Notes: generated by a model from the sequence alone, not told the origin. DNA of 64,000 nucleotides from Allocoleopsis franciscana PCC 7113 (GCF_000317515.1 NC_019738.1:1745623-1809622), one strand, 5' to 3'. Positions 1 to 63,969 are shown, numbered from the stretch's first letter. Numbers and translations: made by a program.

Positions 1-3000
1 ATTGTGTTTGGCCCCAATGCCAGCTTGAACGTTCCAGCTTCGTTCACCGCGACTACAGCGACGGGTATTGGCCTTGATAATAATCAGTTATTCAGCGCCA
101 CCGAACCCAATAACTACGCGACCTTGGTCGGTCAACCTAGTAACTTCAACTTTGCCACATCCCAGACACCAGGGGCAGTGGTGAATATGGGTCAACTGAG
201 TGTCAGCCAGGGGAACAACTTATCTTTGGTGGGCGGTACGGTAGTCAGTACGGGTCAATTAAATGCGCCAGGAGGACAAATTAACATTACGGCTGTTCCT
301 GGTCAGAGTACAGTACTCCTGAGTGCCCCTGGGAACGTGCTCAGCCTAGAGGTTCCAGCCTCAGAAGTCTCCACGATCACTCCTAGTACCTTACCCCAGC
401 TATTGACAGGCAGCGGTCAATCTACGGGTTTGGCAGTTAATAGTTCAGGTCAGGTAGAACTGACGGGGTCGAATATTCCCATCCACAACGGAGATGTGGT
501 GATCAAAGGAAGTGTAACAGCCCAAACAGCCACGGTGTCCGCTCAAAATAATCTGATTTTAGTAGAAAGCCAGTTGCAAACAACAGGTGACTTGAATCTA
601 CTGGCGCAGAATACAGTGATGGTGAGAGATACAGCCACCAATCCTTTCCTCGCCCAGGCAGGAGGGAACCTTTATATTCAGGGTAATTACGAGATTGACA
701 TCCTGGCACTGAATACTCCATATATACCCCCCTTTCAAAGTGGTGGCAACTTGAGTTTTGTCAGTGATGGAATTATTTCTTTTGATAGTCACTCCCAGAG
801 TGGGGGGAGTATCTTGTTTCACAACTTATCAGGCGGCCCCGCCAACGTCTACAGCTATTATGACCCCATCATTACCTCCGGAGGTAATATTGCCCTAGGC
901 AACTACACAGGGGCGGCTCTCAAGGTAGATTCAGGTGGCACTATTACAGCCGGAGATATTACGATTACCCAACCGGATACTCTCTCGATTCCTACTACCG
1001 ATCCAGATTATGTGATTTTGACCACTACTCCATCGCTGATTCTGAAGGCAGCAGGGAGCATTAATGTAGGGAATATCAATACTTCGGATCAAAGTGTAGG
1101 TGATGCTGGGCATGTGAGGTTGACCGCCCAAGGTAACATTACGACCGGCGATATCAACGCCAGAGATTTGGGTGCGGGAAATGCGGGTTCTGTCTCATTG
1201 TTATCCGCTGGGGGCAACATTCAAGTTGAAAATGTCAATACAACCAACCTGAACGCAGGCAATTCCGGTTCTATAACGATGATCGGCGCTGGCACCGTTA
1301 CACACGGCGAATTGAATTGGAATAACTTTGGAACGGGAAATCAAGCAAGCAGCCCTGTAATCATGCAGAATCTAGGGGGCACCAACACTCCTCCACCAAC
1401 AGGCGGTACGACGACTCCCCCACCAGGCGGCACAACTCCCCCACCAGGCGGCACAACGACTCCTCCACCAACGGGTGGTACCACAACTCCCCCACCAGGC
1501 GGCACAACTCCCCCACCAGGCGGTACCACAACTCCAACACCAACGGGCGGTACCACGACTCCAACACCACCAGGCGGCACAACGACTCCTCCACCAACGG
1601 GTGGTACCACAACTCCCCCACCAGGCGGCACAACTCCCCCACCAGGCGGCACAACGACTCCTCCACCAACGGGTGGTACCACAACTCCCCCACCAGGCGG
1701 TACCACAACTCCAACACCACCAGGCGGTACCACAACTCCAACACCACCAGGCGGTACCACAACTCCAACACCAACAGGTGGTACCACAACTCCAACACCA
1801 ACGGGCGGTACCACAACTCCAACACCAACGGGCGGTACCACAACTCCAACACCAACGGGCGGTACCACAACTCCAACACCAACGGGCGGTACCACAACTC
1901 CAACACCAACGGGTGGTACCACAACTCCAACACCAACGGGCGGTACCACAACTCCAACACCAACAGGCGGTACCACAACTCCAACACCAACAGGCGGTAC
2001 CACAACTCCAACACCAACAGGCGGTACCACAACTCCAACACCAACAGGTGGTACAACGACTCCAACACCAACGGGCGGTACCACAACTCCAACACCAACA
2101 CCTACAGGCGGCAGTAAAACGACTCCTTCATCGGGTAGTACAACGACTACCTCCGGTGACAGTATCACTACTCCCGCCGGAGGTAGTAAAGATAATGCTT
2201 CTGGCGGAAGTACAAACAGTACTTCTAATACCTGTCTATCCTGTACGTCCACTGATAGCACTGTGACTACACCCAGTGGCATCGCAAATCATCAATCTAG
2301 TGCCACTACCAGCACGACATCCCGTAGCAGCACAGTGGCTACATCCGATGGCAGTACACCCAATTCACCCAATAGTGGTGGAGCAAATAATCCATCAGGG
2401 CAGGGGAATACTAATCATGTTCATCTGGGTGGAACCAGCGATTCGCCAACAACGAGCTCATCACCACAACAGTTAGTCGGGAACTCGTCTTCAAGTGAAG
2501 TGAAGCCTAATTTAGTGTCTTCTCTGGAAGAACCTTTGACAAATCAATTCGAGCAATATTTTGGGCACCCTGACAAGACTCCGACTGTAACTCTGGCAGA
2601 CGCTCGTAATATTCTTCGTAAAGTGGAGAAAGCAACTGGCGTCAAACCCGCACTCATTTATGCAACCTTTGTGCCTCAACGGATTGTAGCCAATGGGGTA
2701 AGCAATGTATCAACTCCAGACCAAAACTCAAACCTTGAAACTCCAAATTCTTCATACCAGTTGGAATTAGTGTTGGTGACAGGGGAGGGTGAACCGATTC
2801 GTCGTCAAGTAACTGGAGCAACGCGAGAGAACGTTCTCCAAGTGGTTTATCAATTTCAGTCTGAAGTGACGAATGCTCAAAGTGGACGTGACTACGAGGC
2901 TCCTAGTAAACAACTCTATCAATGGCTAATCGCTCCTCTGGATGCTGAGATCAAAGCACGAGGTATCCAAAATCTGTCTTTCATCATGGATAGCGGCTTG

Positions 3001-36425: not shown

Positions 36426-39400
36426 ATGCACCGTATCGCCGCAACGCCAGGAGGGTGGAACCCTCAAGCCGAAGGCGTCATTTTCATTGAACAGTCAGCA
36501 GCACCCATCGTTTTCCTTACAGCAGCGGACACAGATATTCAGACTCTGGCAGCATCAACATCTCAATTGCCAGTGGGTTTCCCTGGGCTACGGGTAGTCA
36601 ATCTGTTGCAGTTGCAGCAGCAACTCACAATTGATACCTATGCAGAAAATGTCTTATCGTCTGCTCAGATCATTATTTTACGGGTCTTGGGCGGACGTGC
36701 CTACTGGTCTTATGGATTAGAAGTGGTGCTAGACACGGTGCAGCAAACGAGTGCTGCCTTGATTGTGTTGCCTGGAGATGACCGCCCCGACCCCGATCTC
36801 ATGAGTCACTCTACAGTATCACTGACCGTGGTGAATCAGGTCTGGCGCTATCTCACGGAAGGGGGCGTTGAGAATTTTGTAAACGCCCTTAAATTTGTGG
36901 CGGATGTCTGTCTGGAGCAAACTTATCATCCACCCGCGCCAAAACCTGTGCCTCGTGTTGGGCTTTATTCCTGGGGAATTGGGAAGGGGGACAAGGGGGA
37001 CAAGGGGGACAAGGGTGATAATTCTCTCTCTCGCCTTCCTCATCCAAAATCCAAAATCCAAAATCTAAAATCCAAAGTTGGGATTCTGTTCTACCGTGCT
37101 CATTACTTGGCGGGAAACTTATCACCTATTGATGCACTTTGTCAAGCTTTAGCTAAACGACAGTTGGAACCTGTACCTATATTTGTCTCTTCGTTACGTG
37201 ACTCAGATGTGCAAGCAGAATTGTTGACGTATTTTCAGCCCAAAGAGGGTTTTGGAATTGACCTGTTACTGAATACAACTAGTTTTTCTCTAGCGAAATT
37301 GAACGCGGAAACCCCTCAGTTGGAGTTGTGGAAGCGTCTGGATGTGCCCGTGTTGCAGGTTATCTTCAGTAGCGGCACGGTGGAACAGTGGGATTCGCAG
37401 TTTCAGGGACTTACAGCCCGTGATACGGCGATGAATGTAGCACTGCCAGAGGTGGATGGGCGTATCATCAGCCGTGCGGTTTCGTTTAAGTCGGTGCAAT
37501 CCTGGAACCCTGATTTGGAAACCGATGTGGTAGTTTATGAGCCGGTGCCTTGTCGGATTAATTTTGTCGCTGATTTAGCCGCGAGTTGGGTACAATTACG
37601 GCAAACCCCACCCCCTGAACGACGCATTGCTCTGATTTTGGCTAATTATCCGAATCGTGATGGACGCCTTGCTAATGGTGTGGGATTGGATACGCCGGCT
37701 AGCTGTGTGGAGATTCTGAAGGGGTTGCAGCAGGCAGGTTATCGGGTTGAGGATATTCCGGAAACGGGGGATGAGTTGATTGGACGGCTGACGGCTGGGG
37801 TGACGAATGATCCGGAAGGGCGGGATTTTCGCTTGGTGCGGCAGGAGTTGTCTTGGGAAGAGTATGGGGAGTATTTTGAGGGGTTGCCTGCGGAGGTTCA
37901 CAAAGGAATAGGCGATCGCTGGGGAAATCTTGAGCAGAGGACTGAAAATCCTCGTGTCCCATTCCCTATTTCAGGAATTCAGTTGGGGAATGTGTTTGTT
38001 GGGATTCAGCCGTCGCGTGGGTATGATGTTGACCCTAGTTTGAATTATCATGCGCCGGATTTGGAGCCGACTCATGCTTATCTGGCGTTTTATTATTGGC
38101 TGCGGCAGCATTTTGGAATGCAGGCGGTGGTGCATGTGGGGAAGCATGGAAATCTAGAGTGGTTGCCGGGTAAAAGTGTGGCGCTGTCGGGTAAGTGTTA
38201 TCCAGAGGTGGCGTTGGGGGCAATGCCTCATTTATATCCGTTTATTGTGAATGATCCGGGTGAGGGGTCTCAGGCAAAGCGTCGTTCGCAAGCGGTGATT
38301 ATTGACCACTTGACACCGCCGATGACTCGTGCACAGTTGTATGGCCCGTTGCAAAAGTTAGAAGGATTGATGGATGAGTATTATGAGGCGCAAAGTTTAG
38401 ATCCGAAGCGATTGGGTGTGATTAGCGATCGCATTACTCAACTGATCATCCAAGAAAATCTCCACCAAGATTTAGGAATCGAAACGGACGAAATCCAAAA
38501 CCCAGATTCTAATATTCAAAATCGGATTGATGGCTACCTTTGTGAGTTAAAGGAAGCCCAAATTCGAGATGGTCTTCATATTTTTGGACATTGTCCCGAT
38601 GGGCGTCAATTGCGAGATTTAATTGTAGCGATTGCCCGTCATCCAAGTCATGATCGTATCGGTTTAACTCGTGCTTTAGCTGAGGATTTGGGATGGGATT
38701 TCGACCCACTTACGGCTGATTTGTCAGGAGTAGGGGATAATAATTACCGCACGATTGGGGACATGGTTGAAGCACTTGAACAACAAGCGGCTGAATTGGT
38801 AGAACAACTGATCCAAAATCAGATCCCCCCCTTACTAAGGGGGGATAGCGTAGGCAGGGGGTTAGGAGAGGCAAGCAAACGAGAATTAGAATGGATATGC
38901 GATCGCCTCTTGCCTTCTCTGCAACAAACTAACCAAGAAATTACCCAGTTATTACGAGGATTGGATGGGCGATATATCGAAAGTGGGCCATCTGGTGCAC
39001 CAACACGAGGACGCCCAGAAGTCTTACCCACAGGACGCAACTTTTATTCCGTTGATATTCGTGCGATTCCCACAGAAACAGCTTGGGCGGTGGGACGAAA
39101 GGCGGCTGAAGTATTAATTGAACGCTATACCCAAGAAAATGGTGAATATCCCAAAACATTAGGACTCTCAGTTTGGGGAACCTCAACCATGCGTACTGGC
39201 GGTGATGATTTAGCGGAGGCATTAGCTTTATTGGGGGTTCAACCCATTTGGGATTATCCTTCGCGTCGAGTGGTGGATTTTGAAATCTTGCCTGTGTCAG
39301 TTTTGGGGCGTCCTCGTGTGGATGTAACGTTGCGAATTTCTGGCTTTTTCCGCGATGCTTTTCCGAACTTAATTAGTTTATTTGACCAAGCGGTTGCAGC

Positions 39401-40409
39401 CGTTGCCGCTTTGGCTGAACCGCCGGAGGATAATCCTTTAGCTGCCCAAGTTCAGCAAGAAGCCGAGATGTGGCTATCCCAAGGGTTGAGTCAGGAAGAG
39501 GCAAATGTGCGATCGCGCTATCGGATCTTTGGTTCTAAACCCGGTGCTTATGGGGCTGGATTACAAGGTTTAATTGAATCTCAAAATTGGACAGATGAGC
39601 AAGATATCGCCCGCGCTTATATTAATTGGAGTAGTTACGCCTACACGAGTAGCCCCCCTAGGGCGTGTTTTCAAACTTCCCCGCAAAATTCAGATCCCCC
39701 CCTGCCCTCCTTAACAAGGGGGGAGAATTCAATCAAAGTCCCCCTTAAAAAGGGGGATTTAGGGGGATCTCCGGGTTTGAAAGCAGACTCCAACCCTCTG
39801 GGTGGACTAGGGGGGGTAGCCGCACCTGAAGCCTTTAATCAACGTTTGAAACAGATGCAAGTTGTACTGCACAACCAGGATAACCGGGAACACGATTTGC
39901 TAGATTCTGATGATTATTACCAATTCCAAGGGGGTTTAACGGCGGCGGTGCGGGCTTTAACGGGCAAGAATCCCACCATCTATTTTGGCGATCATTCCAT
40001 TCCTGAAAACCCGAAAGTTCGGCAACTCCGAGAAGAAATTGCACGAGTCTATCGTTCTCGTGTTGTCAATCCGAAGTGGATTGAAGGGGTAATGCGGCAC
40101 GGTTACAAAGGTGCGTTTGAAATGTCAGCTACCGTTGATTACTTATTCGCATACGATGCCACGACTACTTGTGTAGAAGACTATATGTATCAAGGTGTAG
40201 CCGAGGCATATTTATTCGACTCAAAGGTACAGGAATTTATCCAACAAAAGAATCCTTGGGTTTTGCGAGATATGGCTGAACGATTGCTGGAAGCCAATCA
40301 ACGAGGGTTATGGAAAGAAGTGAAGGGGGAAGTTTTGGAAGAATTAAGAGCGATCGCGTTGCAAGCGGAGGCGGTGATTGAAGGGACTCATGATCAATCT
40401 TTGAGGTAA
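36426..40409 (+). CDS. cobN: Cobaltochelatase subunit CobN (CobN/Mg-chelatase H family), carrying several in-frame repeat insertions
   Basis: 1327 aa with family-typical N-terminus (IFIEQSAAPIVFLTAADTDIQTLA), central GLDTP...ANYPNRDGRLANGVGLDTPAS and C-terminal blocks. Extra low-complexity segments (GDKGDKGDKGD, HPKSKIQNLKSK, IPPLLRGDSVGRGLG, and about 55 aa at 39650-39830) coincide with repeat DNA. Confidence 0.9.
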   Translation: MHRIAATPGGWNPQAEGVIFIEQSAAPIVFLTAADTDIQTLAASTSQLPVGFPGLRVVNLLQLQQQLTIDTYAENVLSSAQIIILRVLGGRAYWSYGLEVVLDTVQQTSAALIVLPGDDRPDPDLMSHSTVSLTVVNQVWRYLTEGGVENFVNALKFVADVCLEQTYHPPAPKPVPRVGLYSWGIGKGDKGDKGDKGDNSLSRLPHPKSKIQNLKSKVGILFYRAHYLAGNLSPIDALCQALAKRQLEPVPIFVSSLRDSDVQAELLTYFQPKEGFGIDLLLNTTSFSLAKLNAETPQLELWKRLDVPVLQVIFSSGTVEQWDSQFQGLTARDTAMNVALPEVDGRIISRAVSFKSVQSWNPDLETDVVVYEPVPCRINFVADLAASWVQLRQTPPPERRIALILANYPNRDGRLANGVGLDTPASCVEILKGLQQAGYRVEDIPETGDELIGRLTAGVTNDPEGRDFRLVRQELSWEEYGEYFEGLPAEVHKGIGDRWGNLEQRTENPRVPFPISGIQLGNVFVGIQPSRGYDVDPSLNYHAPDLEPTHAYLAFYYWLRQHFGMQAVVHVGKHGNLEWLPGKSVALSGKCYPEVALGAMPHLYPFIVNDPGEGSQAKRRSQAVIIDHLTPPMTRAQLYGPLQKLEGLMDEYYEAQSLDPKRLGVISDRITQLIIQENLHQDLGIETDEIQNPDSNIQNRIDGYLCELKEAQIRDGLHIFGHCPDGRQLRDLIVAIARHPSHDRIGLTRALAEDLGWDFDPLTADLSGVGDNNYRTIGDMVEALEQQAAELVEQLIQNQIPPLLRGDSVGRGLGEASKRELEWICDRLLPSLQQTNQEITQLLRGLDGRYIESGPSGAPTRGRPEVLPTGRNFYSVDIRAIPTETAWAVGRKAAEVLIERYTQENGEYPKTLGLSVWGTSTMRTGGDDLAEALALLGVQPIWDYPSRRVVDFEILPVSVLGRPRVDVTLRISGFFRDAFPNLISLFDQAVAAVAALAEPPEDNPLAAQVQQEAEMWLSQGLSQEEANVRSRYRIFGSKPGAYGAGLQGLIESQNWTDEQDIARAYINWSSYAYTSSPPRACFQTSPQNSDPPLPSLTRGENSIKVPLKKGDLGGSPGLKADSNPLGGLGGVAAPEAFNQRLKQMQVVLHNQDNREHDLLDSDDYYQFQGGLTAAVRALTGKNPTIYFGDHSIPENPKVRQLREEIARVYRSRVVNPKWIEGVMRHGYKGAFEMSATVDYLFAYDATTTCVEDYMYQGVAEAYLFDSKVQEFIQQKNPWVLRDMAERLLEANQRGLWKEVKGEVLEELRAIALQAEAVIEGTHDQSLR
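36981..37080 (+). repeat. Intragenic short tandem repeats in cobN: 9-bp (ggggacaag)x3 followed by a heptanucleotide STRR-like array (ccaaaat x4-5)
   Basis: Directly visible: aagggggacaagggggacaagggggacaagg then tccaaaatccaaaatccaaaatctaaaatccaaag. The reading frame is retained. Confidence 0.9.
38821..38870 (+). repeat. G/C-rich palindromic mini-repeat (agatcccccccttactaaggggggatagcgtaggcagggggttagg) inserted in frame in cobN
   Basis: Hairpin C7-TT-act-AA-G6 followed by aGGGGGtta. Same family as 39691-39817 and 56107-56166. Confidence 0.8.
39691..39817 (+). repeat. Composite of two or three G/C-rich palindromic mini-repeats inserted in frame in cobN
   Basis: cagatcccccccctgccctccttaacaagggggg..., then cccccttaaaaaggggg, then atttagggggatctccggg, then ctagggggggtagc. 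Each is a short hairpin with C5-7 and G5-7 arms. Confidence 0.8.
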
Positions 40410-41668: not shown

Positions 41669-42538
41669 ATGACAAATCAAAAGCATATTGAATTACTTGC
41701 TCAAGGAGTAAATGTATGGAATGCTTGGATGGAAAAAAATCACCATTTAATACCTAATCTCCGAGAAGCCAACCTGAGGGAAGCTCACCTCCGATATGTC
41801 AATTTGTGTACAGCGGATTTATCCGAAGCAGATTTGTTTAATGCTAAGCTCAGCGGTGCCGACCTGACGGGAGCGAACCTCACTAGAGCGAACCTCTTTT
41901 TAGTCGATTTCTCAACAGCCGACCTCACGAGAGTTGATCTCACTGGAGCGAACCTCACTAGAGCGAACCTGTTTTTCACCAATCTCACGGGAGCTAATTT
42001 GACGGGAGCTAATTTGACGGGAGCTAACCTCAAAGAAGCCAATTTTAGCAATGCCGGCCTCTGTCGTGCTGACCTTAGTGGTGCTAATCTCAATAGAGCT
42101 GACCTCAGTAAAGCCGACCTAAGAAATATCAACCTGAGTGGTGCTGACCTGAGTGGTGCTAACCTTGGTAAAGCCAACCTGAGTGGTGCTAACCTCTGCG
42201 CGGCTAACCTCAGTGGTGCCAACCTCTGCGCGGCTAACCTGAGTGGTACTAACCTCTGCGCTGCTAACTTCAAAAGAGCTAACCTTAGTGGTGCCAGTTT
42301 GAGCAATACTCATGCGTTGGGTACGAACTTTGAACAGGCAAGACTCACGGGTGTTGAGCTAGAAGATTGGAGTATTAACTCTGACTCCAATTTTGATGGT
42401 GTGATTTGTGACTATGTTTATTTGAAGGCGCAGCATCAAGATCGTCTCCCTATGAGTAGAAAATTTGTCCCAGGAGAGTTCATCAGTTTATTTTCCCGAC
42501 AAATGAACTACCCGAATCTATATTCCAAAGGCGCATAA
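41669..42538 (+). CDS. Pentapeptide repeat protein
   Basis: About 35 consecutive A(D/N)L(S/T)GA-type pentapeptides. The minus-strand ORF 41785-42306 is its mirror-image artefact. Confidence 0.85.
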   Translation: MTNQKHIELLAQGVNVWNAWMEKNHHLIPNLREANLREAHLRYVNLCTADLSEADLFNAKLSGADLTGANLTRANLFLVDFSTADLTRVDLTGANLTRANLFFTNLTGANLTGANLTGANLKEANFSNAGLCRADLSGANLNRADLSKADLRNINLSGADLSGANLGKANLSGANLCAANLSGANLCAANLSGTNLCAANFKRANLSGASLSNTHALGTNFEQARLTGVELEDWSINSDSNFDGVICDYVYLKAQHQDRLPMSRKFVPGEFISLFSRQMNYPNLYSKGA

Positions 42539-54764: not shown

Positions 54765-56105
54765 ATGACTACAACTCTAGATAAATCTACGGCCAGTGAA
54801 CCAACTAAACCTAAATTACCCCCTTCTAAGCACGAATTTGCTGATGTCATTCACCGCCTAGAAGCAGGTGGTGCCATGATACCGGATACGCCAGAGAATC
54901 TCATGCAAATTATCGGCATTTGGAAGGCGTATGCTGTACCGATGGATTTTTACTGGCGCGACTTGCTTTATATAGGGGAACGTGTCTTTTTAGATCCCCT
55001 TCCCTTCTTTAAATACTTCCTACCCAAAGAGTATTTAGAACTGCACAATCATTACGCTGGCGATGATGCAGACTTGCGAATTTGGCGGGGAGAAGCCACT
55101 GCTCATCCCGAACTTTTGGAGTTTATCGAGAAGGGTGAAACAGGCAAAATGCCCAAGTTGCTCCATCACTTGTGGCATGACCGGATTAATATGGAGTTCG
55201 CTGAAGCTTGTATGCGGGCGATGCTTTGGCATCGGAATATGTATGCGCCAGTGAATCAATTTGACCCCTACTTAGATTCGGAAGAATACAAAGCCAACGC
55301 AGATAGAGCAATTAAGGCTTACTTTAAGGGCAATCCAGTGATGCTGGGACTCCATAAGATGTTCCCAGAGATGTTTTTGGAGCAGTGCCGTCAGGCGTCT
55401 TATTACAGTAACTTAGGGCTATTCTGGGAAGTGATGGCTCCGGTTTTCTTTGAAGTTTCCGACCTTTATGATGAGGGGAAAATTACAACAGTTCCGGAGG
55501 CGATGAACTTTTTGGTAAATGGAATTTTTGCGATCGCCGGTCGTCCCATTTACCACCACGTCTACATCCGGGGTGAATGCTACGAAATTATCCCCAAATC
55601 GAAGGGCTTCACCTGGTTGTATGAAGCCGCACTTCCTTACGTTGAAGCTGTTTTTTATCGCACTGCACCATTTAGGGGAACGAAATCTTATAATGCTCAA
55701 GCTGGAGAAGTTCCGGACGATCAGAAAGACTTCCACTATGGGGTTCTCTACGCCGATAAATTCCCGGTTGGTACGGCGGGTATTCCTCCCACATTACTGA
55801 TGCAGGATATGCTGCATTTCCTACCTCCTTATCTCAAGGAATTTTATGCCAAGCGTTGTCGGGATGAGGATGATATTTTAAATCAAATTGCGGTAACGTT
55901 CCAGCGATCGATGTACTGTGTTACCTCTGCGGTATTCCAAGCGTTGCGGACGGCGTTGCTTTATCCGTTAGATGACCCAAATCCGAAGCATTTGCAAGCC
56001 AATCGGGCGTTTTTTGAGGCGCAATTGGATCGGTTCTGTCGTCCGGAGTATGGGATGCGGAATGCGGCGCGTTTAGGGGCTATTCAGACGGCGGATTATC
56101 GGTAG
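54765..56105 (+). CDS. cupA: CO2 hydration protein CupA/ChpY
   Basis: 446 aa with HRLEAGGAMIPDTPENLMQIIGIWKAYAVP...WHDRINMEFAEACMRAM, typical of the ChpY/CupA family. Position after ndhF3-ndhD3. Confidence 0.85.
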   Translation: MTTTLDKSTASEPTKPKLPPSKHEFADVIHRLEAGGAMIPDTPENLMQIIGIWKAYAVPMDFYWRDLLYIGERVFLDPLPFFKYFLPKEYLELHNHYAGDDADLRIWRGEATAHPELLEFIEKGETGKMPKLLHHLWHDRINMEFAEACMRAMLWHRNMYAPVNQFDPYLDSEEYKANADRAIKAYFKGNPVMLGLHKMFPEMFLEQCRQASYYSNLGLFWEVMAPVFFEVSDLYDEGKITTVPEAMNFLVNGIFAIAGRPIYHHVYIRGECYEIIPKSKGFTWLYEAALPYVEAVFYRTAPFRGTKSYNAQAGEVPDDQKDFHYGVLYADKFPVGTAGIPPTLLMQDMLHFLPPYLKEFYAKRCRDEDDILNQIAVTFQRSMYCVTSAVFQALRTALLYPLDDPNPKHLQANRAFFEAQLDRFCRPEYGMRNAARLGAIQTADYR

Positions 56106-56106
56106 G

Positions 56107-56166
56107 AAGATCCCCCCAACCCTCAATAACATCATATTCCCCCCTTGATAAGGGGGGTTAGGGGGT
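56107..56166 (+). repeat. Third copy of the AGATCCCCCC-type palindromic mini-repeat (gatccccccaaccctc...ttccccccttgataaggggggttagggggtaa), immediately after the cupA stop
   Basis: Same hairpin-plus-AGGGGGTA architecture as the two cobN insertions. Confidence 0.8.
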
Positions 56167-56650
56167 AAAGCGATCACATCTCAAACAAACAGAAAACCTT
56201 ATTCCCGCAGACTGGAAGTCTGGGGCTATACAAACGAAGCCTGCCTCCGCAGGCTCTAAAACTTTTGTTTTCCCTAGGGATTGAGTGACTCTATCGGAGA
56301 TAAGCCTTGATGGGGATTTTGAGCTACATTCAAAATAGTCTCTTGTGTCTTATTTTTGGTTTGAGTTTGACAAGATTCTAGGAGAGATTTATATAGATTT
56401 TTCACTTCCTGCTTCTGAGAAATATGATAAGGAAAATTGCGAATAGAATATCTTTGTGTCGAGGATGAAGGTGAATGCTTTCTAGAGGGGAAATACGGAA
56501 TTATTTTGCTGCCTCAAAAAGTGTTTCCGTGATTATACGGTTGTTATCTCTGGCGAGAGGCGATCGCACTTTAAACTTCTGGCTGGTAGCAATTTCTGTT
56601 TGATGCTAGTGAAAGAGGGAGAAAAAGCGATCGCCCACAACTCCCAAATC

Positions 56651-63573: not shown

Positions 63574-63969
63574 TTAAAGGGTATCTGGGTCGATATTCAA
63601 CTCCCGTAGTTTCGCGGCTAATCGCTCAGCCCGTTGTGTTTCCTGTTCAGCCCGTTGTGTTTCCTGTTCAGCTCGTTGTGTTTCCTGTTCAGCTCGTTGT
63701 GTTGCCTGTTCAGCCCGTTGTATTTCTTGTTCGGCTACTTCTTCCGGTGTGGGAACTAGCTCACCTTCTGCGGTGAAAAAGCGTAATTGTCTTTGATGAA
63801 TTCCCAAATATAACTGTAGTTGTTGACTCCACAACAATCCTTGAGAATTAGGTTCTAGCGATTGGTATTCACCATCTAATAAATGGAATCCCTCAAATTC
63901 TAAGCTGTCCGGGTCAAACCAAAAGTAATCCGGTGTGCGAAATGTATCTTGATATATTTGCTTTTTCAA
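63574..63969 (-). CDS. C-terminal part of an Uma2-family-like protein with (QRAEQET)n repeats; probably 5'-partial because the N-terminus runs off the window
   Basis: RTPDYFWFDPDSLEFEGFHLLDGEYQSLEPN aligns with RIPYYGIYIVSHGTLEMYHLVNTSYERMTPN of the 56651-57478 product, and both end in L(G/N)IDxxxL. The stop codon lies inside the IS target duplication. Confidence 0.5.
   Translation of the reverse strand: MKKQIYQDTFRTPDYFWFDPDSLEFEGFHLLDGEYQSLEPNSQGLLWSQQLQLYLGIHQRQLRFFTAEGELVPTPEEVAEQEIQRAEQATQRAEQETQRAEQETQRAEQETQRAERLAAKLRELNIDPDTL

Follow-up and report, generated by a model that had tools for sequence, protein, structure and literature searches.

A 130-bp Miniature Inverted-Repeat Transposable Element Within the Reading Frame of a Cyanobacterial cobN Gene

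In a 64,000-nucleotide stretch of the genome of Allocoleopsis franciscana PCC 7113 (GCF_000317515.1, NC_019738.1:1745623-1809622; hereafter the window), the cobN gene, which encodes the cobaltochelatase large subunit, carries a complete 130-bp MITE (miniature inverted-repeat transposable element) within its reading frame. The element is small, has terminal inverted repeats (TIRs), occurs as dispersed copies, duplicates its target (as seen in a pair of filled and empty sites), and shares its ends with autonomous insertion sequences (ISs). Every feature of a MITE that we tested was found, and the element is a MITE. We consider it very likely that it was mobilized by a transposase and inserted in frame in a loop of cobN, and that two other hairpin-bearing copies in the window, one in cobN and one intergenic, are decayed cores.

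The Element in cobN

A preliminary description of this DNA had reported that an intact cobN with a normal family match carries short G/C-rich hairpin elements at two places (here sites 1 and 2) while keeping its reading frame, and that a third copy lies right after the stop codon of cupA. All of this holds: a dispersed repeat family is present, in frame, in the gene of a conserved and still functional enzyme. The gene matches PF02514 (CobN-Mg_chel) over its full length (profile positions 1-1087 of 1090, CobN residues 140-1300) and has orthologues, the closest of which, in Stenomitos and Allocoleopsis metagenome-assembled genomes (MAGs), are 84-89% identical with conserved synteny. Identity to the cobN of one relative (L001) is 0.948, 0.987, and 0.816 at codon positions 1, 2, and 3, which shows a gene under purifying selection. 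The hairpins are not chance occurrences, as the pattern CCCCCCTTNNNAAGGGGGG has five matches with at most two mismatches in the window versus 0.01 expected by chance.

At site 2, the preliminary description had seen a composite of two or three hairpin copies (39691-39817). What is present instead is one 130-bp MITE with TIRs (table 1). Its core contains two internal CCCCCCTTnnnAAGGGGGG hairpins (hairpin 1 and hairpin 2), and the element in its entirety forms a long, imperfect palindrome centered on GAATTC, whose RNA is predicted to fold with -61.1 kcal/mol (z = -4.4 versus shuffles) into a long stem bearing two small hairpins. Since the element as a whole is a single palindrome with TIRs, the two "mini-repeats" are internal modules of the MITE. 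It is the only TIR-bearing copy in the window. Its right TIR is degenerate, and the next two bases are CA (39791-39792) instead of the TA of the family; the same right junction in L006 still reads ...CAGACCC-TA. An assembly artifact was ruled out by the presence of the same insertion in the independent assemblies L001, L006, and L007.

Movement into Coding Sequence at a Single TA

The same MITE was found in a sensor kinase gene (PAS/HisKA/HATPase_c) of an Allocoleopsis MAG (L005, 22603-22732), for which empty alleles also exist. The filled allele reads GGCAA-TA-(130 bp)-TA-GGGACGC and an empty allele (L147) GGGAG-TA-GGGACGC; another (L148) also has a single TA. As the filled and empty alleles differ by 130 bp plus TA, the element together with its duplication adds 132 nt. 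At the protein level, the closest orthologue (P0121) has 950 residues versus 994, that is, exactly 44 fewer, and the alignment contains a clean 44-residue gap. Thus, the MITE moved into coding sequence at a single TA. A duplication of 3 or 4 bp (TAG or CTAG) was ruled out, because the base before the TA in the kinase gene differs between the two sides; the TIRs stay in register only with a 2-bp duplication.

Copies, Target Site, and Partner Insertion Sequences

We searched one genome per species in a genome collection as well as a metagenome collection, and compared cobN DNA of the window with that of seven relatives. The genome scan gave copies at 15 loci in six MAG assemblies, and the metagenome scan gave at least 120 stretches. 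In L018 and L022, canonical copies that lie between genes, the 16-nt TIRs GGGCGTGTTTTCAAAC and GTTTGAAAACACGCCC are perfect and TA stands on both flanks. Among oriented copies with a recognizable right end, the modal length is 130 bp and TA stands on both sides in 17 of 21; among elements with a pair of TIRs (90-1300 bp, those of IS length included), it does so in 44 of 48. In these 44 elements, C is found at position -1 in 35 and G at position +1 in 41, which indicates that the target is CTAG with the TA duplicated.

The MITE contains no transposase gene and at most one open frame of 44 codons without its own start codon. On the other hand, four elements of 861-888 bp (L023, L040, L068, and L095) have the same TIRs and TA flanks and one open reading frame (ORF) of ~240 amino acids. 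A degenerate 929-bp copy (L073) matches DUF4096, and its match to DDE_Tnp_1_2 lies below the Pfam cut-off (26.4 versus 29.2 bits); both are domains of IS4/IS5-family transposases. From these partners we infer that the enzyme that mobilized the MITE lineage in cobN is probably an IS5-family transposase. Mobilization of the IS630/Tc1 type, considered from the TA/CTAG target, was ruled out because the TIR-bearing ISs encode DUF4096/DDE_Tnp_1_2 proteins. Several MITEs with the same TIRs have unrelated cores without hairpins (L037, L078, L082, and L142), as is expected when one transposase serves several passengers.

In the genome collection, the MITE with its exact left end was found only in Coleofasciculaceae-type MAGs (Symplocastrum, Allocoleopsis, "Stenomitos," "Aphanothece" CMT-3BRIN, and others), and a scan of viral contigs with its right end gave no matches. 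The ~80-bp core alone is far more widespread, being present in intergenic regions on plasmids of Nostoc, Anabaena, Pseudanabaena, Kovacikia, Leptolyngbya, Oscillatoria, Synechocystis, and Picosynechococcus, where its outer inverted repeats are different each time.

Comparison of L018, L008, and L022 with L005 and the window also revealed two states of the MITE arms, in which CCAGAGTTAAAAAGGGGGG pairs across the element with CCCCCTTTTTAACTCTG, or the arms form the local perfect hairpins CCCCCCTTAACAAGGGGGG and CCCCCTTTTTAAGGGGG. The core occurs in two orientations, read as GENSVKVPLFKGDLGGS or KSPLKRGTLTEFSPLKKGGWGGS. These features hint at quasi-palindrome correction or core inversion.

Reading Frame and Genic Copies

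The canonical MITE is free of stop codons in one of its six frames, which reads RACFQTSP..DSDPPQPPL.RGENS.KVPLFKGDLGGSPGLKT.P and is open also in the intergenic copies L018 and L008. The G/C-rich hairpins help to keep this frame open because stop codons are A/T-rich. All genic copies that we found are read in this RACFQTSP frame and orientation. Their hosts are CobN (window, L001, and L007), the histidine kinase (in its HATPase_c region, L005), the adenylation (AMP-binding) domain of a nonribosomal peptide synthetase (L015), MenC, in its interdomain region (L019), an XdhC-like protein (L020), and an FAD oxidoreductase with a truncated MITE remnant (L013). Genic copies account for 6 of the 13 distinct copies in the genome scan.

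Two of the genic or possibly genic copies have further peculiarities. The MITE of the XdhC-like gene (L020, 2226-2406) has a nested insert of ~51 nt in its right hairpin arm, and the frame is nevertheless kept (181 + 2 = 183 nt). A MITE with a flipped core (L120, 1094-1223) lies in a stop-free stretch that joins, as judged by eye, a glycosyltransferase-like to a haemagglutinin-like region; it may be either a MITE-mediated ORF fusion or an open intergenic copy.

The preliminary description had offered two explanations for the preserved frame: selection after insertion, or an element that inserts in multiples of three. The second is correct for the 130-bp subfamily, whose insertion is frame-neutral because 130 + 2 = 132 nt, or 44 codons, and fails for the wider family: among 41 elements with both ends, length plus two leaves a remainder of 0, 1, and 2 on division by three in 14, 12, and 15 cases, respectively. 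Only three or four of these 41 are genic. The confidently genic L005, L020, and L120 have frame-keeping lengths, and L037, which has a weaker through-ORF, does not. Elements with the hairpin core have 0.68 stop-free frames each versus 0.58 in shuffled sequences. An element adapted to ORFs was therefore ruled out by the frame statistics (14/12/15 and 0.68 versus 0.58). Considering that neither a length bias nor an excess of open frames exists across the family, survivorship is favored over a design in multiples of three, and selection after insertion is the better explanation. The simplest reading is that in-frame copies are survivors of selection, about one insertion in six into a tolerant loop leaving a working protein.

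Site 1, the Intergenic Copy, and Solo Hairpins

Two hairpin copies in the window lack TIRs. Site 1 of cobN contains a perfect palindrome (38823-38846); its hairpin was found in L001, L003, L004, and L006 by sequence comparison and in L001, L003, L005, and L006 by hairpin scan. The intergenic copy begins 2 nt after the stop codon of an ORF (54765-56105) for a CO2-hydration protein of the ChpXY/CupA type (chpY/cupA), and consists of AGATCCCCCC, then, 21 nt on, the hairpin, and then TTAGGGGG. That either is a whole decayed copy of the 130-bp MITE was rejected, as local alignment to the MITE recovers in both only the hairpin module (with or without the tail) of ~15-20 nt. The predicted folds of solo hairpins are no better than those of shuffled sequences.

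It could be supposed that the mobile unit is the hairpin itself, a unit of ~20-25 nt (CCCCCCTTnnnAAGGGGGG, with or without a TTAGGGGG tail) comparable to the SDR repeats discussed below, and that the MITE is merely one of its hosts. Solo hairpins without TIRs do exist (site 1, the hairpin at 56139, and L114 at position 121), some MITEs of the TIR family have hairpin-free cores, and in distant cyanobacteria the hairpin core is bounded by different outer ends. Moreover, sister copies of the MITE differ exactly at the hairpin arm, CCAGAGTTAAAAAGGGGGG in L018 versus CCCCCCTTAACAAGGGGGG in L005, and in one CobN (P0009) the hairpin-encoding unit of site 2 has been multiplied in tandem. However, solo hairpins have neither defined ends nor a target duplication, and no filled and empty pair was found for any of them. 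Of 64 distinct hairpins in a sample of 920 kb, 57 are inside a TIR-bearing MITE or within 130 nt of a MITE TIR, although this sample was chosen by TIR and is thus biased. By visual comparison, site 1 of L001 (AGATCCCCCCCTACCCCCCCTTAAAAAGGGGGG) resembles ~36 nt of the left half of a Nostoc plasmid core, beyond the hairpin, which fits a decayed larger element. We therefore regard an independently mobile hairpin as unlikely, and the ~25-nt unit of the preliminary description gives way at site 2 to a 130-bp MITE with TIRs and a target duplication. Given the lack of TIRs and duplication, and the location of 57 of 64 hairpins in MITEs, we read site 1 and the copy at 56107-56170 as probable decayed fragments from the cores of related elements, with the TIRs lost.

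Probable Nesting and Patchy Distribution at Site 2

Four relatives lack the MITE (L002-L005) and read ACCCCC(C/A)C-TA-A... at the insertion point. By comparison with the Nostoc plasmid core AGATCCCCCCTAACCCCCCTTAAAAAGGGGGG, we read the allele of L002, ACCCCCCC-TA-ACCCCCCGTTAGTCAGGGGC, as an unoccupied site that appears to be itself a copy of the hairpin core. Because the empty site reads in this way, the MITE seems to have entered an earlier element of a broadly similar kind. Other copies landed in the sequence ...CCCCCC-TA-GCCCCCC... of another core (L125, L065, L083, L020, and L136).

The site-2 MITE is present in the window, in L001, and, with its right half only, in L006. It is absent from L003 and L004, although, judged by synonymous sites, both are no more distant from the window, and the much more distant L007 has a MITE at the identical left junction with the other core variant. 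The loop alleles of cobN form a mosaic, in which the window resembles P0004 and L005 at site 0 (see below), L003 at site 1, and L001 at site 2. Such a pattern points to recombination between lineages, to insertion at the same TA more than once, or to the two together.

Hypervariable Loops of CobN

An alignment of 121 cyanobacterial CobN sequences revealed three hypervariable loops between invariant blocks (table 1). At site 0, a 9-nt tandem repeat (AAGGGGGAC, 3.6 copies, 36984-37015) is read GDKGDKGDK and a heptamer tandem repeat (ATCCAAA, 5 copies, 37042-37076) is read KSKIQNLKSK; in other lineages, this loop contains the MITE-core peptide DPPQPPLKRGEN. The site-2 loop is flanked by WSSYAYT and AAPEAF and has 57 residues in the query; among the 121 sequences, the shortest has 3 and the median is 16. 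In a phmmer alignment to a solved CobN structure (9uk9), query residues 1075 to 1130 correspond to only 1064 to 1068 of the chain, that is, an insertion of ~54 residues. On the other hand, the site-1 loop, with 23 residues versus a median of 20, aligns to 9uk9 without extra length, and it is its content, not its length, that is lineage-specific. Thus, of the ~20 and ~55 residues that the preliminary description had taken as added at the two sites, the figure for site 2 is about right (~51-54) and that for site 1 is not. Its view that the segments are lineage-specific was borne out, since they are absent from distant CobN proteins and from solved CobN structures.

The loops contain different repeat-derived peptides in different lineages, including TNNQQPT/TDNGQLT heptamer repeats, KIQNPKSKIQN, ICVHPRASAVK, PPLxKGGLGGV, and DPPQPPLKRGEN. 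ICVHPRASAVK comes from another MITE-like element (L007, 5365-5523). At site 2, 31 of the 121 loops fit the hairpin-peptide pattern, and PPLxKGGLGGV directly precedes AAPEAF in many of the closest ~35 CobN sequences; minimal forms such as WSSYAYSGSGKGHAASEVF in P0018 are without it.

The element of L007 (5365-5523), at site 1 of that relative's cobN, is a different palindromic repeat with the translation NHRWTQMNTDNQSLSICVHPRASAVKKIQN, a peptide family whose pattern was found at site 1 in 13 of the 121 CobN proteins. Because this peptide differs, the same CobN loop has been colonized independently by different repeat families.

In an AlphaFold2 model of residues 701-1327, site 2 is a coil with pLDDT < 50 between two helices, and site 1 is a loop between two helices. 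Sites 1 and 2 are thus predicted to lie in permissive, variable surface loops. Across the phylum, the three CobN loops have repeatedly received or stored repeats of several unrelated families, and the repeat-filled loops explain the wide length range of cyanobacterial CobN (1247-1529 residues among the closest homologues). Such permissive loops could also serve for tagging or engineering.

Considering that loops at these positions vary in all 121 CobN proteins and that site 1 has no net length relative to 9uk9, the segments could be thought to be ancestral low-complexity loops that merely resemble repeats. At site 2, this is already refuted by the exact TIR, the target TA, and the full-length identity to copies in unrelated genes and intergenic DNA, as well as by the existence of unoccupied alleles; the loop contents of other lineages are unrelated and derive from other repeat families. 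As a whole, we give this explanation almost no credence.

Proposed Origin of the cobN Insertion

A reasonable scenario is as follows. An IS5-family DDE transposase, supplied by ISs of 860-930 bp with the same ends, would cut and paste the MITE in trans. The MITE inserts at a TA, usually within CTAG, and duplicates the TA. When it inserts in the stop-free orientation and phase into a permissive loop, the product would be a protein with 44 extra residues rich in Pro, Gly, Ser, and Asp, probably disordered and presumably devoid of a function of their own. Insertions in other phases, orientations, or places would be removed by selection, and we propose that all genic copies share one frame because the others were purged in this way. 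In cobN, an older G/C-hairpin element would already have been present in the loop between WSSYAYT and AAPEAF, and its TA would have served as the target of the MITE.

Several observations weigh against this scenario. The cobN copy is probably immobile now, because both its right TIR and its right TA are degenerate. Neither the window nor the cobN relatives yielded a transposase gene bounded by these TIRs, and for this reason the mobilizing enzyme of the cobN lineage can only be inferred; some of the intact partner ISs come from metagenome contigs. No TIR-bearing parent can be assigned to the solo hairpins (site 1 and the hairpin at 56139), and the AlphaFold2 model is of moderate quality (mean pLDDT of 63.7). 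In addition, the MITE in the window (39661-39790) differs from that of L001 (13269-13398) at 10 of 130 sites (0.077), less than the 0.253 of 4-fold degenerate cobN sites that differ between the two (P = 2e-7), although local third-position divergence near the MITE is ~0.15. Pure neutral junk would not be expected to diverge so little; possible reasons are recombination, gene conversion from other copies, and constraint at the nucleic-acid level.

An alternative is co-option, in which the hairpins or Pro/Gly-rich loops serve cobN (as a translational pause, in mRNA stability, or as an interaction loop) and have been kept by selection. The MITE RNA folds far better than shuffled sequences, its copies in the window and in L001 differ chiefly in the loops of the hairpins and less in the stems, its divergence is lower than that of synonymous sites, and it is still of full length in at least two lineages. 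Yet strong folding is intrinsic to any palindromic MITE, and the low divergence is partly local, the mosaic of loop alleles pointing to recombination. The identities of 0.886, 0.909, and 0.977 at positions 1, 2, and 3 within the MITE lack the codon-position pattern of protein-level selection. Furthermore, the MITE is missing (L002-L005) or halved (L006) in close relatives whose CobN is equally conserved, and the loop of site 2 is absent from minimal orthologues and from solved CobN structures. Co-option in cobN is therefore very improbable in our view.

Another explanation, which we also consider improbable, concerns the core. The ~80-bp core (AGATCCCCCC...hairpin...GAATTC...hairpin...TTAGGGGGATCT) would be a module found throughout the cyanobacterial phylum and captured time and again by different transposon ends, and its genic copies, that in cobN among them, would be kept by selection at the nucleic-acid level, for example by mRNA structure that tunes translation or as hot spots of recombination or gene conversion. 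If this were true, cyanobacteria would have a mode of protein-loop evolution similar to that of the Rickettsia palindromic elements (RPEs), with a functional component. The scenario of a transposase-mobilized MITE remains the one that we prefer.

Features of the Window

The features discussed here are listed in table 1. HIP1 motifs (GCGATCGC) occur 51 times in the 64-kb window, including inside cobN at ~38901 and ~39510, which marks the window as cyanobacterial. A scan of positions 38700-39900 against Rfam gave no family match, even at E <= 1.

Table 1. Positions of Features in the Window and of Variable Loops in CobN
Feature	Position	Strand	Evidence or remark
Intact host gene cobN, large subunit of cobaltochelatase (1327 aa)	36426-40409	+	ORF and Pfam
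Site 0 tandem repeats	36984-37076	+	Tandem Repeats Finder
Site 1, putative core remnant without TIRs, AGATCCCCCCC-TTACTAA-GGGGGGAT plus G-rich tail, translated QIPPLLRGDSVGRGLG	38821-38870	+	
Putative older hairpin element, left part (CCCCCC) and target TA (39659-39660)	39653-39660	+	
Complete 130-bp MITE, in-frame translation RACFQTSPQNSDPPLPSLTRGENSIKVPLKKGDLGGSPGLKADS	39661-39790	+	Exact left TIR; full length versus L018, L008, and L005
Left TIR, 16 nt, GGGCGTGTTTTCAAAC, exact family match	39661-39676	+	
Hairpin core, ~80 bp, inner inverted repeat AGATCCCCC / GGGGGATCT, centered on GAATTC (39725-39730)	39692-39770	+	
Right TIR, degenerate, GTTTGAAAGCAGACTC versus consensus GTTTGAAAACACGCCC	39775-39790	+	
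Putative older hairpin element, right part (ACCCTCTGGGTGGACTAGGGGGGGTAG), translated NPLGGLGGV	39793-39819	+	
Putative intergenic core remnant without TIRs, AGATCCCCCC...CCCCCCTTGATAAGGGGGG-TTAGGGGG	56107-56170		
CCCCCCTTNNNAAGGGGGG match, 2 mismatches	727-745		Pattern scan
CCCCCCTTNNNAAGGGGGG hairpin, 0 mismatches	38826-38844		Pattern scan
CCCCCCTTNNNAAGGGGGG hairpin, 1 mismatch (hairpin 1 of the MITE)	39705-39723		Pattern scan
CCCCCCTTNNNAAGGGGGG hairpin, 2 mismatches (hairpin 2 of the MITE)	39739-39757		Pattern scan
CCCCCCTTNNNAAGGGGGG hairpin, 0 mismatches	56139-56157		Pattern scan
CobN loop, site 0	Query residues 182-217		0-155 aa across 121 CobN
CobN loop, site 1	Query residues 797-819		11-107 aa across 121 CobN
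CobN loop, site 2	Query residues 1075-1131		3-80 aa across 121 CobN

Other repeats were also observed in the window. Positions 1387-2100 contain a tandem array of a 27-nt unit (consensus ACTCCAACACCAACAGGCGGTACCACA, 27.6 copies, 85% matches) that would be rich in Thr, Pro, and Gly if translated. At 41864-42294, periodicities of 15, 30, 45, and 75 nt overlap (e.g., AACCTGAGTGGTGCT, 10.9 copies), and the 15-nt period suggests a region coding for pentapeptide repeats. A 21-nt tandem repeat (TCAGCCCGTTGTGTTTCCTGT, 5.1 copies, 93% matches) is located at 63626-63732.

Comparison with Known Systems

Bacterial MITEs are mobilized in trans by IS transposases, and cyanobacterial examples include Nezha of Anabaena and Nostoc, the MaeMITEs of Microcystis, and MITEa-e of Anabaena PCC 7120, for which ORF fusions are described; in-frame insertion into protein genes is on record for several MITEs, those of PCC 7120 among them (PMC3184786, PMC10969869). 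The cobN MITE shares with such bacterial MITEs a length of 120-170 bp, a noncoding nature, TIRs identical to those of an IS, a short duplication of the target, a hairpin predicted to be stable, filled and empty sites between relatives, and occasional fusion with host ORFs. As judged from the descriptions, it differs from Nezha, which shares its ends with ISNpu3, in its TIR (GGGCGTGTTTTCAAAC) and in its IS5 partner with DUF4096/DDE_Tnp_1_2. A literature search with diagnostic DNA and peptide strings of the family, which missed the main papers on SDRs and on the MITEs of PCC 7120, found no description of it. What this case adds is a Coleofasciculaceae-type host lineage and its own set of genic insertions.

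SDRs resemble the hairpins of the window in being very short, hairpin-forming, and nested in larger repeats and genes. Elhai et al. are said to have described, in 2008, SDR1-8 of Nostoc punctiforme and its relatives as very short hairpin repeats with units of 21-27 nt. The unit shown to be mobile here is instead a 130-bp MITE, and the likeness is one of description only. PMC5861425 gives SDRs as reported in Nostocaceae only. REP and REPIN sequences are likewise dispersed short G/C-rich palindromes, sometimes paired into a larger hairpin, that are targets for other mobile elements (PMC3116915, PMC3733652). However, REPs are extragenic and are moved by a Y1 (IS200/IS605-like) RAYT without TIRs or TA duplication, both of which the cobN MITE has; neither a RAYT gene nor a GTAG/CGTC tag was seen here.

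A further parallel is with RPEs, for which in-frame palindromic insertion in protein genes is established (Ogata et al. 2000, 2002, in the summary of PMC10969869). RPEs are palindromes of ~105-150 bp found in frame in unrelated conserved genes, where the encoded peptide is compatible with fold and function. The cobN MITE is likewise a palindrome of ~100-150 bp in frame in unrelated protein genes, and many copies are genic in both families. It differs from RPEs in its phylum, its DDE-type TIRs, its TA duplication, its matching ISs, and its lack of enrichment in open frames, so the likeness is best regarded as an analogy rather than membership. Owing to these ends, the duplication, and the matching ISs, its mechanism of mobility is identifiable.

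The cobN MITE is thus a clean new example of a known phenomenon and no new kind of system. It provides a mechanistically readable transposon fragment in conserved enzymes, with defined ends, a TA duplication, a filled and empty pair in coding sequence, and matching ISs. For annotation and alignment, it serves as a warning that Pro/Gly-rich stretches of the form RACFQTSP...KGDLGGSPGLKT are transposon-derived. Cyanobacteria, in short, have an analogue of the in-frame palindromic elements of Rickettsia.

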